Below, one piece after another: positions 53,921-61,579 of a stretch of 63,025 nt of DNA. The notes under the pieces were generated by a model that saw only the letters and a list, made by a program, of their open reading frames with translations, ran no database searches and had not been told where the DNA came from. This stretch comes from Verrucomicrobiota bacterium (lineage in GTDB: Bacteria; Verrucomicrobiota; Verrucomicrobiia; Limisphaerales; UBA1100): contig JASLKQ010000005.1 of assembly GCA_030747505.1 (NCBI GenBank), positions 1 through 63,025 on the forward strand. The letters run 5' to 3'. The position numbers and the translations under genes are program-made. Numbering within the stretch: position 1 is the stretch's first letter; the number at the start of each line of letters is the position of its first letter.

Positions 53921-55183
53921 ATGAAAAACCAGCCTCTATCACCTGAACTTTATGAACAGCACCTCGAGGTGACGCGCCGTTATTTCATGCAACTAGGGAC
54001 CGTGGGCCTGACTGCACTGAACACCCAAGGGCTTTGGGCCAGAGATTCAGACGAATCTCTTCTGACTGATGCAACTGAGGACCTGGAATACCTCACCCCG
54101 CCCAACGAGTTTAGGACAGTGGAACGAGGCAAGCCTTTGCCATATACACTACCACTGGAAAAACGTCTGGAATTAGGATTGGAAAGGCGGACCTGGAAAC
54201 TTGAGGTCATTCCTGATCCCAAGAGCAATGTCCAGATGGTCAATCCGCTTTCCCGTGAGAAGGGAAATGCGCTGGACTTCAAGGGACTCATGAAACTGGC
54301 CCAGAAACATGCGGTACGTTTTCTCAAGGTCATGACCTGCCTCAACATGAAAGAGCCCCTGGGAATGGGCCTTTGGGAAGGAGTCCCCTTGCGCAACGTT
54401 ATCTGGACCACCAAACCCACGGCCAACATTCGGCGCGTCTATTTTTACGGGCATCACAATGAGGACCCCAAACAACTATTCCAGAGTTCACTGTCCATTA
54501 ATCGCGTTCTGGAGGATCCTCCGGGCGACAACCCCATCATCCTTTGTTACAAGTTAAATGGCCAGTGGCTTAGTGGCAGGCGTGGCGGACCGGTGCGCAT
54601 GTTGGTTTCCGATGCCTACGGCTTTAAGTCGGTGAAGTGGCTCAAGAGCGTGGTACTCACCAATAATCATCAGGCCAATGACACCTACGCCAAGGGCAAT
54701 AACGACATTGATAGCCCGATGAAATCTATGGCCCGTTTCATCTACAAGCCCCTGAAGGAGAAGGCCGGAACCCCCATCGCGATAACCGGCCTTGCCCACG
54801 TGGGCATAAGCGGATTAAGCAGGGTACAGGTGTGGATCAATCCGCAGGATAAAAAGTGGCCCAAGGAGGATCCCTGCTTTACCAAGGCTCACTGGCAGGA
54901 TGCAAAAATCCTGCCGCCACCCACCAAGTGGGGCGGTGATTTACCCGAAGGCAAGCTACCATCCGATGTGCGATTCTTCACCAGTGAAGGCCAACCCAAG
55001 CACTGGCCCATGCGCTACACGATCGCCCACTGGGCCACGCTCCTCAAGGGTATTGCCCCCGGCAAATATGATATCTATTGCCGCACCATTGATGCCAACG
55101 GAATCGCCCAGCCCATGCCGCGCCCATTCCGAAAATCCGGCCCCAATACAATCCAGAAAACTTCGATTACAATAGAGATTTAG
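53921..55183 (+). CDS. Molybdopterin-dependent oxidoreductase, sulfite oxidase family (Tat)
   Basis: TRRYFMQ; MTC (Mo-ligand Cys), WEGVPL and NGQWL...GGPVRM...YGFKSVKWL motifs; C-terminal dimerisation-like domain. Confidence 0.88.
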   Translation: MKNQPLSPELYEQHLEVTRRYFMQLGTVGLTALNTQGLWARDSDESLLTDATEDLEYLTPPNEFRTVERGKPLPYTLPLEKRLELGLERRTWKLEVIPDPKSNVQMVNPLSREKGNALDFKGLMKLAQKHAVRFLKVMTCLNMKEPLGMGLWEGVPLRNVIWTTKPTANIRRVYFYGHHNEDPKQLFQSSLSINRVLEDPPGDNPIILCYKLNGQWLSGRRGGPVRMLVSDAYGFKSVKWLKSVVLTNNHQANDTYAKGNNDIDSPMKSMARFIYKPLKEKAGTPIAITGLAHVGISGLSRVQVWINPQDKKWPKEDPCFTKAHWQDAKILPPPTKWGGDLPEGKLPSDVRFFTSEGQPKHWPMRYTIAHWATLLKGIAPGKYDIYCRTIDANGIAQPMPRPFRKSGPNTIQKTSITIEI

Positions 55184-55186
55184 AGG

Positions 55187-55516
55187 CTATGCGCACCGCA
55201 CGCACAACACCACATCAGGTGAAACCTCAAGGCGAACCTCAGCAATGAGTTGCTTGCATTTGCCACACAAGCCATAGGTTCCCTTATCCATCCGTTTAAG
55301 AGCATTGGCAATACGCTGGAGTTGCTGCTCCTGCCGACGACGCAGTTCAAGGGCCATCTGCTGGTTTTGCATGGCATCCATACGCGAAAGACGCCCAATC
55401 GAGGTGTCCAGTTCCACCACACCCGAATCCTCTTTGCTGGATTCCATGGCGGAACGAATTTCTTCAGCCAATAACTCGAGGCGGGAACGAAAATGATCGA
55501 GGCGGTCCGTATCCAT
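55187..55516 (-). CDS. TraR/DksA C4 zinc-finger protein
   Basis: IGRLSRMDA and ALKRMDKGTYGLCGKC...RL...LCVRC motifs. Confidence 0.92.
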   Translation of the reverse strand: MDTDRLDHFRSRLELLAEEIRSAMESSKEDSGVVELDTSIGRLSRMDAMQNQQMALELRRRQEQQLQRIANALKRMDKGTYGLCGKCKQLIAEVRLEVSPDVVLCVRCA

Positions 55517-55534
55517 GAACCAAAAAAACTACTG

Positions 55535-56458
55535 TTAATCTTGCTCAACTCCCATCTTCTCAAAGAAGACAACGTGCTGCCAAGGAAGCTTCTTGTATGT
55601 TTCCACATGCTTAAGAGGAAACAAGGACGCTTCTTTAATCACCTGTTCTTCAGTCATCTTGTGCAGGCGTTTGATCGGCACTTTAGGGTCTTCAGCGCGG
55701 TATTCCACGAAGGCCACGCGACCTCCCGGAATCCATATTTTGGTTCCGGGATTAAGGGCATCCCATTGCTCATGCTCAATCTTATCGTTCAACATTTGGA
55801 TGCGGCGATATAACTTATTATAGTCCTTCCCTATTGATTCAAGGGTTTCTCCCTTCTTTACTTTATGAATGGTCGCTGGCTTGAGAGCCTTCACAATGCC
55901 ACTCATCATTTCATAGGGATGTGAAAATTCATGGTACACATCAACCATGATGACAAGATCCATGGAGTTAGCGTCAAGATTCGGATCCTTTATTGTACCG
56001 AGATGGTCCTTCACATTGGTGATAGCTGCCTCCTTCATATTTTTTTTCAGATCATCCAGCATCTTTTGCTCAATATCCACACCTAGAACAACACCTTGAA
56101 GTCCAATTTTCTTCGCCATGCGCCGTGCGATGTAACCTGTCCCCACACCAATATCGGCTACTTGGTTGCCGGGCCTAAGATTAAGGCATTTAATCATCTC
56201 TTCGGTGTTCTCCTCTTTTTCTCGCTCAGGTCGCTCCAACCAAGTCGCCCCCGCATGACCCATTACATGAGAGATCTGTCTTCCCATATAAAACTTACCG
56301 ATGCCTTCAAAATTGGATCGTAGCACCTGCTGGTACAACGCATCCGTACCCGACAGTGTAACTGGACCGAAAGGCTTAGGCTTAACCGTTTTATCCTGCG
56401 CAACCAGAAACCCCGTAGCGCAGAGGGAAAGGGAGAGTAATTTACAAATCCTCGTCAT
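55535..56458 (-). CDS. Class I SAM-dependent methyltransferase with signal peptide and an inserted LysM domain
   Basis: YMGRQISHVMG, WLERPERE, ADIGVGTG, VDVYHEF and LKP-[LysM]-GGRVAFVEYR motifs. Start at 56458 (ATG) or 56467 (GTG). Confidence 0.9.
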   Translation of the reverse strand: MTRICKLLSLSLCATGFLVAQDKTVKPKPFGPVTLSGTDALYQQVLRSNFEGIGKFYMGRQISHVMGHAGATWLERPEREKEENTEEMIKCLNLRPGNQVADIGVGTGYIARRMAKKIGLQGVVLGVDIEQKMLDDLKKNMKEAAITNVKDHLGTIKDPNLDANSMDLVIMVDVYHEFSHPYEMMSGIVKALKPATIHKVKKGETLESIGKDYNKLYRRIQMLNDKIEHEQWDALNPGTKIWIPGGRVAFVEYRAEDPKVPIKRLHKMTEEQVIKEASLFPLKHVETYKKLPWQHVVFFEKMGVEQD

Positions 56459-56741
56459 GAAATTCACCTAATTGGCGTATGAAAGTATAGTGGTAAGGGT
56501 AAAGTACTAGAGTTCGCTTCGCTGCCTCCTTGCCGTTGGCTGGAACCGTAAAGGGAAGACTTAACACGTACAGGGCACTCCCTCCAGCAAGAGCTAAAAT
56601 CCCCAACGGTCGACATATGAACACATCAGCAATAATTGCTGGAGCATCCTTCCCTGATCCAGCCGGGTTTGCGTTTACCTTTCCTGTAAATACCATGGAT
56701 ACTACCAAAAGAACCACCAAGTTTTGTTTGAGCTTTCCCAT
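56442..56741 (-). CDS. Conserved small exported/membrane hypothetical protein
   Basis: Strong AGGAGG RBS before ATG 56741; D...RPLG...G...VLSLPF...LV..P..YTF.R.LG pattern. Confidence 0.75.
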   Translation of the reverse strand: MGKLKQNLVVLLVVSMVFTGKVNANPAGSGKDAPAIIADVFICRPLGILALAGGSALYVLSLPFTVPANGKEAAKRTLVLYPYHYTFIRQLGEFHDEDL

Positions 56742-56846
56742 CCTTAACCTCCTTGCCTCATAAGAATCTATTAAGCCCGCAAAGTCAATCCACACTTGGC
56801 CACAGTAGACTTGCCATTAACGAAGCTAAGAGGCTAAATCTGCTCC

Positions 56847-57280: not shown

Positions 57281-60200
57281 TTAATCGTTCAAAAACGTAG
57301 CATCCTTTGACTTCAAACGCATCGCTTTTGGTAAAGCCTTAGCATCGAGACGGATAACAATTCGGTGTATACCGGGTTTTAGTTCCGCGGTGAATTGATT
57401 GCCGCGCTTAAGCGGCTTCCCATCAATCCATGCCTCGGTCTGGAGCTCGTCTGGAATCTTAAAGGTGATTAAGCCAGCTTTCTGGACTTCAAATTTAGTT
57501 CCGGCAAATACATGCACCAGCCCCACATGTCGACCAACAGCCGTAACCTCGGTAATATCCTCCGCCGGCAAATCCCCGTTCACGCGCGTGGGCACCAGTT
57601 TCCAGCCAGCATTATTGCCGGCTCCCAGAACATGATTGGACCACTTTTTTTCAAAGTCTTCCTGCACAATCTTTTCGATGCCGTACTGCTCCACGCGATG
57701 GGTTCCGGGAAGCAAGCGCCAGGTTCGTGCCACACCGGTTTTGGTCGCGTCAAACGGACCTGCCTTACCCAGCTCGGCGAGGAAACGGTAAAGATCGAGC
57801 TGTTCTTTTTCGGTCAGACTCAGAATCAGTGCCGGCGGCATAAGTGACTGTCCATTAATTTTCCTTTTCACCTGATTGCGGGGAATGGAAATCAGTTTAT
57901 CAGCCGCATCACGAATCACAATTTCCGCACCAGTCTGGCTTACCTGTACGCCCACCAGCGAACGGTTGTCCTTTGTTTCCACGACCACTGAATGATAGCC
58001 TTCCTTGATCTTGCGGTTCGGATAAAGAATGGACTCGATCAAATAATCTGGCTGCGCACTGGTTCCGATGGAGGTGAAATCCGGCCCCACCTTCCCGCCT
58101 GCTCCACCAATGGCGTGACATACCGTGCAGGCCAGCGCCTTGCGACGGTAGACTTTCTCACCAGCAAAGGGATCACCCTCTTTCATGACGCGGGCGGCCA
58201 ACGCCTTGAGCTCGCCGGCATTCATCTGCTTGGTTAATAGTGAAATATTTTGCGAACGCGCCAAGGCTTCCACCAACACCTTTTCATTTCGACCGCCTTC
58301 GCGTGCCGCCCGCAGACCGGCACTGGCCACAGGCTTGGACAACTGTACGCCAGCCAGACCACCGGCGAGGAGACTCCCTGCTCCCCGGTTACTAAGCAGC
58401 CCGCGCCAAAGTTCAAGAGCGCTATTGGTGTCCTTGGTGTCCCTGAGTACAGCATAAACCTCGTTGAGTGAACCTTTGAGGTTGAATCGGCCCAAAGAAC
58501 GGGCGGCAGCCTGACGAATCTCCAAAGGCTTATCTGCAGCAGCAAGTTTCTTGAGGCCATTCAATACTTTGGACCCGCGAATCTGTACGAGGCTATCAAA
58601 GGCCACTCCACTACCCTCTGCGGCAATCACCAGCAAGGGCTCCACCAACTCAGCCCGTTTCCAAGTGCCCGCCAACTGAACAGCAAAGTTACGAGTAGCA
58701 TCATTATCTGTCTTGATAAACCTCCCCACACCGCCAAGGTCACCGACTGGGCGAACATTCCGCAGAGAAGCCGCACGTGCCAGGGCGGACAAAACACGGG
58801 GATACACATCAGGCTCAAAACCTCCTTCTCGGAGTTGTTTGTACATAAGGGCGAGCTCGCCCGCCCCACCCGCAGCACCAACCAGTTCAATTAATGGTCC
58901 CGCCCCATCAGCAGGCAACTTGCGTTGGCGCACAAGCTGACCGATAAGGGATGCCGCCTGGTTGGGCGGCATCGAGCGCAAAGCAAACTCGGCATGGGCA
59001 ATCTTATCCTTGAAATTAAGCGCACCATTCTGCATGCCACGCACAAAGGGTTCGGCCAGATCATTCATGGTAAGCCACAGGCCGTAATCGAGAAATTTGT
59101 CCATTGGCTGATCAAGGGCCTGCAGGGCATATTGGGCATACTGATGCGCAGCAGCCGAATCCTTCATTTCGGCATACACACGCATGGCCTCTAAACGGAC
59201 TCGAGGATGCTCATCACGGATACCAGCAGCGGCGTGTAATTGGGTAGTATTCAGACGGTCATGCCAATGGGCTAAAACACGCATGGCTGCCGCACGAACA
59301 CGTGCGTCATTAGCCTCAAGGGTAAGCATCAATAGCGAAGCGTTCACCACGTTAACTGCCTCGTGTAACCATAATGCCTCAAGTTGAGCCGTTTCATTTT
59401 CTCCATGGCGATCGAGCCATTTTTTTAGATCCTTCAATATCTTTGGACCACGCTCGTGCAATACTCTCCGAGCCTTGGCCTGATCGTATGCGTTTTCGGT
59501 CAACAGCGTGTCCATGAGAATCGTGTTTTTTTCCTTGGTGAAATCGCGTGGCTTTTGCAGTGAACGTCCCTTGAAGGTCACACGCCAGATACGGCCATGA
59601 ACCTTGTCGCGGCGTGGATCGCGAAAATCCACCTCACCATGCTGAATAATGGGGTTGGACCAATCGGCTATATACAGTGCCCCATCAGGGCCCTGTTTCA
59701 CATCGATTGGCCGGAAATGAGCACTACTACTGCGAATGAAATCGCCCAGATGCTCAGCAGCATAACCGGCACCATTCTCGGCAAGGTTAAACCGAACAAT
59801 ACGGTGCGCGCGAAAATCACAGGTAATGGCCTGCCCTTGAAAACCTTTGGGAAAATGTGGGCTTCTCAGAATCTCCAGTCCGGCAAATTTGGGATAATTA
59901 CCCGGGCTAATGGTATCCATTATCCGACGAGCCCCCGCATAGGTACGATACATTGCGCCAGGAATAGCGTAGCTGATCCCCTGAAAACCCGCTCCATCAG
60001 TAACAAAAGACTGCCCGTATCGATTAAAATGATGTCCCCAGGCATTTACCCAACCACGGTACTGGACACCTGCCTGCTGTGTATCAGGACGCAACCACAT
60101 CACACCGCCACTCTTGAGTCTTACCACCCCATGTGGAGTCTCCAGATGGCTGCGAATGTATATGGATTGGTTGAAGTAGAGTCGCCCATCGTGTCCCCAG

Positions 60201-61579
60201 CGAAGCGTGTGCAGCGTATGGTGGGTGTCCTCAGTACCAAAACCCGATAGCACAATGCGCTTTTCATCAGCCTTGCCATCACCATCGGTGTCCTTGAAGT
60301 GCAGCAACTCCGTGCTTTGCCCCACATAACACCCTCCATCACCAGGCTCCACCGCAGTGGGAATGAAAAGCCCTTCGGCAAACACCTTGGTCTGATCAGC
60401 CCTGCCATCACCATTGGTGTCGTGTAGAACGACAATTTTATCATTGGCAACCTGTCCCGGTTTCACCTGTGGATATACTTCGGAGGTAGCCACCCAGAGT
60501 CGACCTTGTGGGTCAAAATTCATCTGGATGGGTTTGGCCAATGAAGGATTTTCGGCAAAGAGTGTGATCTCGATCCCCTTCATGGTATCAAACTTCGGTA
60601 ATGGCTGTGGTGTGCGGATGGGTGCTTCCGGCTTGGCAATTGAGGGGGATGGCATTGGGCGAAGATCACGCCGAATGGCAATCTCCTTTTCCTTGGCAAT
60701 CACCAAGGGATCAAATCGGGGAATCTCCACGGCATTATTACCCTGCTCGCGTTTACGAAAGCCAAAAATATAGGCCATGTTTTGTGGTCGTGATCGATCG
60801 AAAAAAAGCTGATTCTTGCGCTCTATTAATGCGCGAAGCTGGGAGGCGGACGGAGTATTCACACGTAAATGCCTCTTCACACCAAGCTGGCGACATATCT
60901 CATTGGCTATTGTCCTATAACCATGATTAGTAGGGTGTATCCCATTTTCGGTAAGTGCCTTTTTTGCGGTCACCAAAGGCGGAGCATCAAAGAGCGAGAC
61001 AAATCGATCCCCTTCATTTTCAGCCATAACCCTTAACTCCTCGGTATAGGCAGCCAATTGTCGATTATGCACCGAGGGATCGGGCAACCCTTTCCCAAGA
61101 TGCTCGTGTCGAATTGGCGAAAGTACTACATACCGAATAGAAGAAGTGCCGGAGGCCTTGGCTATAGCTGCCTTGAGGGCACGTATATCTTTACCGAACT
61201 GCTCGGGCTGATTTTCATATGAGCTGGCCATCCCATAACCGAGAAAAACTACCGTTGGCTTTACCAATTCGATTTGTTTCTGCAGTTGCCTCCATCCTTC
61301 ACCAGCAGATTCGCGACCGGCTTGTAGCAGACTGAGCCCTGCACGCGACACTCCACGAGGGGTATCCCCACTCCAGCCAAGATTGCGAAAAGTAATATTC
61401 CGGTCTGGCCAAGCCGTTGTAAGATACAGTTCAAGGTGATTATATTCCTGCATACGCTCGATGAACGCATCCCCAAGGAAAGCAACCCTATCCCCGTCCT
61501 GAAGTTCGAAGGCAGCTGATTTCAAGGAACTCACACTGAAAATTTGTGCGACAATAAATACGTTAAAGAGAAGTCTCAT
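57281..61579 (-). CDS. PVC-type heme-binding CxxCH protein: SGNH-like + beta-propeller dehydrogenase-like + HEAT repeats + cytochrome c
   Basis: RNLGWSGD; LFAENP...KPIQMNFDPQGRLW; DTNGDGRAD repeats; FRPIDVKQGPDGALYIADW; HGRIWR; HEAT-like repeats; CTVCH...GPDFTSIG...MP. Confidence 0.9.
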   Translation of the reverse strand: MRLLFNVFIVAQIFSVSSLKSAAFELQDGDRVAFLGDAFIERMQEYNHLELYLTTAWPDRNITFRNLGWSGDTPRGVSRAGLSLLQAGRESAGEGWRQLQKQIELVKPTVVFLGYGMASSYENQPEQFGKDIRALKAAIAKASGTSSIRYVVLSPIRHEHLGKGLPDPSVHNRQLAAYTEELRVMAENEGDRFVSLFDAPPLVTAKKALTENGIHPTNHGYRTIANEICRQLGVKRHLRVNTPSASQLRALIERKNQLFFDRSRPQNMAYIFGFRKREQGNNAVEIPRFDPLVIAKEKEIAIRRDLRPMPSPSIAKPEAPIRTPQPLPKFDTMKGIEITLFAENPSLAKPIQMNFDPQGRLWVATSEVYPQVKPGQVANDKIVVLHDTNGDGRADQTKVFAEGLFIPTAVEPGDGGCYVGQSTELLHFKDTDGDGKADEKRIVLSGFGTEDTHHTLHTLRWGHDGRLYFNQSIYIRSHLETPHGVVRLKSGGVMWLRPDTQQAGVQYRGWVNAWGHHFNRYGQSFVTDGAGFQGISYAIPGAMYRTYAGARRIMDTISPGNYPKFAGLEILRSPHFPKGFQGQAITCDFRAHRIVRFNLAENGAGYAAEHLGDFIRSSSAHFRPIDVKQGPDGALYIADWSNPIIQHGEVDFRDPRRDKVHGRIWRVTFKGRSLQKPRDFTKEKNTILMDTLLTENAYDQAKARRVLHERGPKILKDLKKWLDRHGENETAQLEALWLHEAVNVVNASLLMLTLEANDARVRAAAMRVLAHWHDRLNTTQLHAAAGIRDEHPRVRLEAMRVYAEMKDSAAAHQYAQYALQALDQPMDKFLDYGLWLTMNDLAEPFVRGMQNGALNFKDKIAHAEFALRSMPPNQAASLIGQLVRQRKLPADGAGPLIELVGAAGGAGELALMYKQLREGGFEPDVYPRVLSALARAASLRNVRPVGDLGGVGRFIKTDNDATRNFAVQLAGTWKRAELVEPLLVIAAEGSGVAFDSLVQIRGSKVLNGLKKLAAADKPLEIRQAAARSLGRFNLKGSLNEVYAVLRDTKDTNSALELWRGLLSNRGAGSLLAGGLAGVQLSKPVASAGLRAAREGGRNEKVLVEALARSQNISLLTKQMNAGELKALAARVMKEGDPFAGEKVYRRKALACTVCHAIGGAGGKVGPDFTSIGTSAQPDYLIESILYPNRKIKEGYHSVVVETKDNRSLVGVQVSQTGAEIVIRDAADKLISIPRNQVKRKINGQSLMPPALILSLTEKEQLDLYRFLAELGKAGPFDATKTGVARTWRLLPGTHRVEQYGIEKIVQEDFEKKWSNHVLGAGNNAGWKLVPTRVNGDLPAEDITEVTAVGRHVGLVHVFAGTKFEVQKAGLITFKIPDELQTEAWIDGKPLKRGNQFTAELKPGIHRIVIRLDAKALPKAMRLKSKDATFLND

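Follow-up and report, generated by a model that had tools for sequence, protein, structure and literature searches.

The analyzed window, a stretch of 63,025 nucleotides (nt) from contig JASLKQ010000005.1 of a Verrucomicrobiota bacterium, carries on its minus strand, at positions 55535-56458 (stop codon 55535-55537), a gene for a protein with the fold of class I S-adenosylmethionine (SAM)-dependent methyltransferases, in which a LysM module is nested and for which export is predicted. Four Pfam methyltransferase families, i.e., Methyltransf_25 (54.7 bits; cut-off 27), Methyltransf_31 (51.3; 27), Methyltransf_11 (46.8; 21.2) and Methyltransf_12 (42.3; 30), match its product above their cut-offs, as does LysM. 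The open reading frame (ORF) 55535..56467 encodes 310 amino acids (aa), or 307 aa when read from the ATG at 56458; the latter is likely to be the true start, yielding a gene of 307 codons, because a Shine-Dalgarno-like AGGTGA (56464..56469, minus strand), which contains an alternative GTG start, is located 5 nt upstream of this ATG and because the ATG agrees with the starts of homologs (M[TM]RICKL...). Residue numbers given here are those of the 310-residue translation (P0001). A promoter and terminator scan returned counts not above those in shuffled sequence.

Four parts can be recognized along the protein, all encoded on the minus strand. The signal-peptide-like N-terminus MTRICKLLSLSLCATGFLVA (56399..56458) possesses R and K in its n-region, an uncharged h-region of 14-15 residues and an LVA/QD end, the slash marking the presumed SPase I cleavage site. 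The mature N-terminal part (residues 24-197; 55877..56398) is composed of a Pro/Lys-rich linker, a family-specific N-terminal cap (GIGKFYMGRQISHVMGH...) and the elements beta1 to alphaD, within which motif I (VADIGVGTG) and D176 are located. Next, between alphaD and beta5, comes the LysM insert (residues 198-247; 55727..55876), its assignment being based on Pfam, AlphaFold2 and its absence from insert-less orthologs. The C-terminal methyltransferase part (residues 248-310; 55538..55726) comprises GG followed by beta5 (RVAFVEYR), alphaE, beta6 and beta7, as deduced from alignment and models.

An earlier sequence-only reading of this DNA had claimed that ALKP/GGRVAFVEYR is split by 50 in-frame residues constituting a LysM domain, and both elements of that claim hold. 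Positions 55727-55876 (minus strand) translate to exactly the 50 residues given there, located between ...YEMMSGIVKALKP, where the preceding flank reads ...IVKALKP, and GGRVAFVEYR, and they split the conserved ALKPGG turn of the family in frame; the boundary is ambiguous by one proline, ALKP/...IP/GG being equivalent to ALK/P...I/PGG. The insert alone matches Pfam LysM (PF01476) at 32.8 bits (E 6.5e-8), well outside chance expectation, and within the whole protein the match still reaches 27.9 bits (gathering cut-off 20.9), in both cases across model positions 1-43 of 43, while the matches to methyltransferase hidden Markov models end at approximately residue 197. Among 27 aligned homologs the segment is present in 15, all of which match LysM at E <= 0.01; the other 12 display a clean gap (ALK/--/PGG) and no LysM match.

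In the AlphaFold2 model the insert consists of strands at residues 198-202 and 243-247, helices at 209-215 and 220-226, and an extra short helix at 232-235, with 10-residue block means of the predicted local distance difference test (pLDDT) of 86-92 across residues 201-250, and it is joined to the methyltransferase fold by linkers of 3 and 2 residues. Judged from its sequence, the insert is a real and complete LysM, with the beta-alpha-alpha-beta unit predicted by the model. All 15 insert versions retain the positions of G[DE]T[LI] and of the conserved Asn, and they can be assigned to two LysM-like types of sequence, TIHxVxxGxTLExIGKDYN... and TxSYTVEDGDTIGSIAKD[HY]N.... As a result of a length-variable alpha2-beta2 loop, the inserts measure between 49 and 62 residues. 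This loop, which precedes the last LysM strand (window ~55754-55783; P0006, P0007, P0010, P0011, P0013 and P0015) and into which the short extra helix of the model falls, varies through repeated E-[EQ]-W-like units, e.g., ...PEQWGEPNKPKEWKAL. Matches of the central helix of the insert, GETLESIGKDYNKLYRRIQMLNDKIE, to the HA2 helix of influenza haemagglutinin (E 0.016-0.08) and to Pfam Hemagglutinin (E 0.03) were judged to be compositional chance. A wide structure search performed by VIA with the whole model was uninformative on the LysM part, its list being filled by methyltransferases.

A first AlphaFold2 model, based on 27 sequences, was too poor for the methyltransferase part (mean pLDDT 68.9) and was replaced by one based on 127 family members (mean pLDDT 89.6; predicted template modelling score 0.84). 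The element order in this model is alphaD (184-194), LysM and beta5 (250-257). The best solved match returned by Foldseek is 3dh0_A (E 1.7e-15; template modelling score 0.92 normalised to the target), and VIA aligned 3dh0_B at Z 26.9 with a root-mean-square deviation of 1.7, all 190 of its 190 residues being aligned across model residues 66..305 minus the 50 inserted ones. D105, G107, G109 and G111 of motif I (D/E-x-G-x-G-x-G), as well as D176, are invariant in the 127 family sequences, and D131 hardly varies across the 27 close homologs; the roles of these residues (motif I, acidic residue after beta4) are presumably those known from other class I enzymes. The Rossmann methyltransferase fold around the insert is thus predicted to be intact, which accords with the nested arrangement that had been proposed. 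In class I methyltransferases the SAM pocket lies at the C-terminal ends of beta1-beta4, and by this textbook topology the alphaD-beta5 turn, at the N-terminal end of beta5, would face away from the pocket.

No equivalog cut-off of NCBIfam was reached, whether for ArsM, UbiE/MenG, PCMT, UbiG or others, the matches being confined to the generic SAM-binding part. The best of these, to the arsenite methyltransferase PRK11873, scored 49.1 bits against a cut-off of 263, and UbiE (36.4 against 378) and PCMT (31.4-31.6 against 282-359) were likewise rejected. The Protein Atlas returned generic methyltransferase clusters only, at 0.87, which serve as leads only.

In-frame copies of the insert that vary in sequence are carried by 14 other protein clusters at 90% identity (from ENA, NCBI, JGI and Logan), and they are also found in the genomes of two other species (G001 and G011). 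Furthermore, 20 of 24 listed seawater or marine sequencing runs, originating from 12 studies, contain the stretch or part of it, and contigs of runs X1 and X2 cover 55400-55854 and 55825-56407 without differences, spanning both junctions; these are assembled contigs, and the two contig sets are identical, so that they may stem from one data set or be the source of the window itself. Pieces from run X8 do not extend over 31 letters to both sides of either junction, and an insert-less joint was seen in no contig of the runs examined. RNA run X19 yielded one contig of 152 nt at 56120-56271, i.e., outside the insert, which shows neither insert transcription nor a transcript. One might argue that a chimeric contig or a binning artefact joined a LysM fragment to a methyltransferase gene, as the source genome is a draft of 254 contigs with an estimated completeness of 90.7% and the X1 and X2 contigs could be a single data set or derive from the window's own source. 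However, the varied copies from four sources and two further genomes, the bridging of both junctions, and the fact that the junctions are in frame and the insert is evolving under selection (see below) reduce the probability of this explanation to a negligible level, and the insertion is not an assembly artefact.

The distribution of the insert is narrow when compared with that of the methyltransferase family. At least 599 stretches encoding a relative were detected by a scan of genome contigs; among the best 80 loci, which were retained and which belong to Verrucomicrobiota, Poribacteria, Planctomycetota and Acidobacteriota, among others, only that of an uncultured Pedosphaera metagenome-assembled genome (L001) possesses the insert, as judged by match length. 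A scan of 1.84 billion protein representatives returned 7781 matches at E <= 1e-3 and 278 at E <= 1e-30, and among the best 150 of these only P0014 matches through the insert. The gene is matched in 29 of 41 related genomes, with the match running through residues 198-247 only in the window's own genome (G000), G001 and G011, all of one genus; in seven other species of that genus the match splits at 197/247, indicating an insert-less form. The insert is accordingly present in three of the ten same-genus species whose gene is readable across the site and in none of the 18 other matching genomes. Further genomes of the genus comprise one with a C-terminal fragment only and four incomplete ones (50-86% complete) without a match. 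The insertion is young and restricted to one genus.

Insert-free orthologs of the window's clade are 85-98% identical to the insert bearers outside the insert. Their genomic context is also shared: the order small ORF, methyltransferase, DksA/TraR and, on the other strand, molybdenum (Mo) oxidoreductase is found in the window, in L001 (with insert) and in L002 (without), and part of it is kept in L003 and L007, both without the insert, its absence having been read at the site in L002 and L003 and deduced from ORF length only in L007. The insert stands out in the DNA alignment as a clean block of 150 nt, whose junctions share only a CC(N)G microhomology too short to be meaningful; the clean domain insertion that had been read from the sequence is borne out by this comparison of orthologous, syntenic genes.

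In a tree calculated without the insert columns, all 15 bearers fall within one clade of 19 (support 100/99), and at least five gain/loss changes are required, or two if only starred branches are counted. The P0004 and P0016 alleles, with and without insert, respectively, are nearly identical, and five of their six differences fall just downstream of the insertion site. Between two species (L091 and L092) synonymous divergence (dS) amounts to 0.26 in the insert and 1.11 in the rest of the gene. In three species pairs the ratio of nonsynonymous to synonymous substitution rates (dN/dS) of the insert is 0.20, 0.15 and 0.34, while the corresponding values outside the insert are 0.17, 0.06 and 0.10; the figures are rough since those of the insert rest on approximately 30 synonymous sites. 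The insert is under purifying selection, which is somewhat relaxed. The tree, the near-identical P0004 and P0016 alleles, the low dS of the insert and its genus-restricted distribution together point to a single gain in the genus, after which alleles with and without the insert would have been shuffled by homologous recombination, rather than the insert being repeatedly and precisely excised. A second in-frame indel is located between beta6 and beta7 (columns 320-332 of alignment A1), where ten of the 27 proteins possess 10-13 extra residues (GPPTEDSKGKR-like); it is absent from the window protein (...VETY/KKLPWQ, ~55577-55588) and independent of LysM, as P0019 has the indel without LysM and P0004-P0007 have LysM without the indel, a further sign of mosaic alleles.

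As to a donor of the insert, the genome of the window offered no closely related LysM paralogue, its next best match being 39% identical (E 0.087), while a word-based search that took the insert as its sole query and was set to longer proteins gave, from 5.8 billion proteins, nine matches, all of them methyltransferase-LysM proteins themselves. The insert shows no foreign composition, its guanine-plus-cytosine content (41%, versus 47% for the rest of the gene) being within the gene's own 150-nt range.

The N-terminus of the window protein reads MTRICK, LLSLSLCATGFLVAQ and DKTVKPKP, corresponding to a positive n-region, an uncharged stretch of 15 residues and an LVA/Q end; there is no twin-arginine motif in MTRICK, suggesting a signal of the Sec rather than the Tat type. 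From 121 homologs examined, the 113 that retain the GIGKFY anchor motif were kept and the eight without it were dropped, and export was assessed by our own crude sequence counts. A hydrophobic N-terminal segment is present in 107 of the 113, the six exceptions appearing truncated or mis-started; in 98 of the 107, positive charge is greater in the n-region than in the 12 residues that follow the hydrophobic stretch, and 95 of the 107 possess an AXA-like site. The signal-peptide-like N-terminus pointed out in the sequence-only reading is consequently seen both in the window protein and across its family.

Identity within this family falls to ~40% across the set of 127 members. Of 57 long representatives, 22 carry another Pfam domain, always before or after the methyltransferase domain: ThuA in seven (four above cut-off), 3-keto-disaccharide hydrolase in three, glutathione peroxidase in two (one of these also with 3-keto-disaccharide hydrolase) and, in single cases, DUF6807, peptidase M19, fucosidase with F5/8, cytochrome c, cyclophilin, SGL, SASA, GH43_C2, S41, DUF3429 or TPR. 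As judged by eye, a signal-peptide-like N-terminus is found in approximately 16 of the 21 fusions inspected, and the cytochrome c fusion contains a CXXCH motif. As c-type cytochromes are matured outside the cytoplasm, the fusions with cytochrome c and with secreted-type domains provide independent support for an extracytoplasmic location of the family. The host family is large and uncharacterised, and from such sequence features it appears to be mostly exported.

LysM hits were also obtained for five other ORFs of the genome, in four of which Pfam confirmed the domain, near a terminus in each case; these four are an Amidase_2 protein, a TPR protein, a protein with two LysM domains and one more. 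This use of LysM on envelope proteins by the genome counts in favor of the interpretation developed here, in which an exported enzyme of methyltransferase fold is anchored or positioned by the LysM on peptidoglycan or another glycan containing N-acetylglucosamine (GlcNAc). A Sec-type signal peptide would send the class I SAM-methyltransferase-fold enzyme out of the cytoplasm. Within one marine genus, a single complete LysM (carbohydrate-binding module family 50, CBM50) was inserted in frame into the tight alphaD-beta5 turn (ALK-P/GG), where it could be accommodated because its first and last strands pair and its ends lie side by side; it would sit in this surface turn as an excursion that leaves the catalytic core intact. 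The LysM may then hold the enzyme non-covalently on a GlcNAc-containing glycan, most plausibly the cell's own peptidoglycan, and so retain it in the envelope or place it near its substrate. Binding of LysM to GlcNAc in peptidoglycan or chitin, with a resulting increase in local enzyme concentration, is described in PMC4004799. We consider this tethering role somewhat more probable than its contrary, with glycan binding, SAM binding, export and activity all presumed, and the earlier interpretation of a wall-tethered methyltransferase-fold protein is, as a whole, partly supported.

Several points weigh against this interpretation. The chief objection concerns the methyl donor: we know of no SAM in the periplasm, and a Sec-type signal would export the protein unfolded and without cofactor. 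Cytoplasmic SAM is an objection that stands against the whole exported family and not only against its LysM variant. Furthermore, the first 12 residues after the hydrophobic stretch of the window protein bear a net charge of +2, which is not ideal for Sec export, and LysM alone is no proof of an extracytoplasmic location, the Escherichia coli LysM protein Kbp/YgaU being cytoplasmic. The LysM score is also modest and this version has diverged (IG in place of the usual IA, the extra short helix and the variable alpha2-beta2 loop), which may have altered its glycan groove; a single-sequence PDB search with the insert returned one weak LysM match, to LytE of Bacillus subtilis (E 0.0054). Finally, four insert-less sequences nest inside the clade of the bearers, and P0016, which lacks the insert, is identical to P0004, which has it, at 250 of the 256 other positions, so that the insert is dispensable in nature.

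These last observations are also those expected if the insert were a tolerated passenger, i.e., a nearly neutral presence/absence polymorphism in a permissive loop that is shuffled by recombination and has no function of its own. The changes required by the tree fit such a view, as does the L091/L092 comparison, where the lower dS of the insert is as expected for a segment that moves by recombination, and each of the three pairs shows a higher dN/dS for the insert than for the remainder of the gene. However, at 0.15-0.34 the ratios of the insert are well below 1, LysM is still matched over its full length by each of the 15 versions, with the G[DE]T[LI] and N positions retained, both sequence types are still LysM-like, and none of the 15 copies proved to be frameshifted or decayed, all of which makes a mere passenger quite unlikely. 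The objections from SAM being cytoplasmic, from the net charge of +2 and from Kbp would likewise be met if the hydrophobic segment did not lead to export, the enzyme residing in the cytoplasm or at the inner face of the membrane and the LysM-like insert serving a non-glycan role. Against this, the uncharged stretch is only 15 residues long, which is too short for a typical membrane span, the charge bias in 98 of 107 homologs is that of an N-in/C-out orientation and 95 of the 107 possess the AXA-like site, while a cytochrome c domain with CXXCH, of the kind matured outside the cytoplasm, is present in one family member and secreted-type domains behind signal peptides are present in others; we regard retention in the cytoplasm as decidedly improbable.

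The main rival to tethering on the cell's own wall is a substrate-targeting role, in which the LysM, as a CBM50, would bring the exported enzyme to GlcNAc polymers of the environment or of prey (chitin, chito-oligosaccharides or foreign peptidoglycan), these polymers or something bound to them being modified by the methyltransferase-fold domain. The family fusions to fucosidase with F5/8, SASA, GH43_C2, 3-keto-disaccharide hydrolase, ThuA and SGL are in keeping with such a role, as is the Poribacteria locus, where genes for a GFO/IDH/MocA oxidoreductase and for a PSCyt/PSD1 cytochrome protein adjoin that of the family. The organism is, according to the runs, marine, and chitin is abundant in that environment. 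LysM binds chitin as well as peptidoglycan, as stated in PMC4004799. However, no chitinase or glycan-uptake genes were found beside the gene. In addition, a single LysM is reportedly of low affinity, and extracytoplasmic glycan methylation is not known to us, nor was it found in literature searches. Targeting of chitin-like glycans is on balance unlikely, although it deserves to be taken seriously. A related proposal, in which the LysM would aim the active site at the GlcNAc glycan itself, making the protein an extracytoplasmic glycan methyltransferase that acts on peptidoglycan or chitin, seems very unlikely; if true, it would represent a modification of cell walls or polysaccharides that has not been described so far.

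The closest solved relative of the window protein, by sequence (E 1.5e-10) as well as by fold, is 3dh0, a structural-genomics entry for a SAM-dependent methyltransferase of Aquifex aeolicus. The two share the seven-stranded class I fold, with 15-19% identity over the structural alignment, but neither the insert nor the first 65 residues of the window protein, which include the signal-peptide-like segment, are represented in 3dh0, and this entry carries no assigned substrate and so gives none for the window protein. Anchoring of cell-wall enzymes by LysM is itself familiar, MltD and NlpD of E. coli reportedly being examples. In AcmA of Lactococcus lactis and LytE of B. subtilis the LysM likewise resides on an exported enzyme, a peptidoglycan hydrolase, and holds it on GlcNAc glycan, yet it is located at the N- or C-terminus and is often repeated with linkers (PMC4004799), whereas the window protein possesses a single LysM nested inside the catalytic fold by linkers of 2-3 residues and on a methyltransferase fold. 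The accessible portion of PMC4004799 describes no LysM inside another domain, and our full-text literature searches found neither a LysM within a methyltransferase nor bacterial periplasmic SAM-dependent methyltransferases. The insert-less and fused forms of the exported family possess the same cap motif, SAM motifs and signal-peptide-like N-terminus as the window protein; in the fused forms the extra module lies beside the methyltransferase domain, and only in the window's clade does it lie inside the fold. Outside bacteria, mammalian METTL9, for which an extracellular action has been proposed, has been called the first secreted methyltransferase (bioRxiv 10.64898/2025.12.23.696137), an indication that methylation outside the cell is regarded as unusual; it raises the same question of the methyl donor, although it belongs to an unrelated family and has no LysM.

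What is new here is the nested-domain architecture within the catalytic Rossmann fold of a methyltransferase. The insertion furthermore represents a clean and datable natural case, being confined to one genus and still polymorphic, recombining and under selection. As LysM is normally extracytoplasmic, its presence provides independent support that this methyltransferase family works outside the cytoplasm, where we know of no supply of SAM. The SAM supply of the exported family is a more important puzzle than the variant itself, and the paired alleles and the predicted binding partner offer a handle on it. If the protein were an extracytoplasmic glycan methyltransferase, SAM or another methyl donor would have to be supplied to the periplasm for hundreds of exported methyltransferases, and the natural alleles with and without LysM would constitute a ready-made targeting experiment.

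The neighbors of the gene are the small ORF, the DksA/TraR gene, the Mo-oxidoreductase gene and a DUF4870 gene, and no consistent functional partner was detected across clades, whose neighborhoods differ. The small upstream ORF (56442..56795, minus strand), which matches no Pfam family, encodes ~100 aa when read from an internal Met, the beginning of its product resembling a signal peptide (MGKLKQNLVVLLVVSMVFTGKVNA...). Between its stop and the methyltransferase start there is an overlap of 17 nt. The same ORF precedes the methyltransferase in L001, L002, L003 and L007, and the two are probably co-translated partners. The co-directional DksA/TraR C4 zinc-finger gene (55187..55516, minus strand), also syntenic in relatives, begins 18 nt after the methyltransferase stop. 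The gene at 53921-55183 (plus strand), which converges on it and is syntenic in L001 and L002, encodes a 420-aa molybdopterin oxidoreductase of the Oxidored_molyb family, which includes sulfite oxidases, with an N-terminus of the twin-arginine type (TRRYFMQLG). At Poribacteria locus L008 (1893-8526) and similar loci, the family gene lies directly after, and overlaps, that for the GFO/IDH/MocA oxidoreductase, while PhyH-type dioxygenases and a 1244-aa PSCyt1/PSCyt2/PSD1 cytochrome protein adjoin it; these neighbors echo the ThuA, 3-keto-disaccharide hydrolase and cytochrome c fusions and hint at a link to periplasmic sugar oxidation. Positions 57281-61579 (minus strand) encode a signal-peptide-bearing protein of 1432 aa with a GDSL-like lipase domain (below cut-off), DUF7133, HEAT repeats and a C-terminal CTVCH motif of the haem-binding type, whose gene (cluster c8) is also found in synteny with the methyltransferase locus in several relatives; large multidomain proteins of this kind with signal peptides are presumably common in these phyla.

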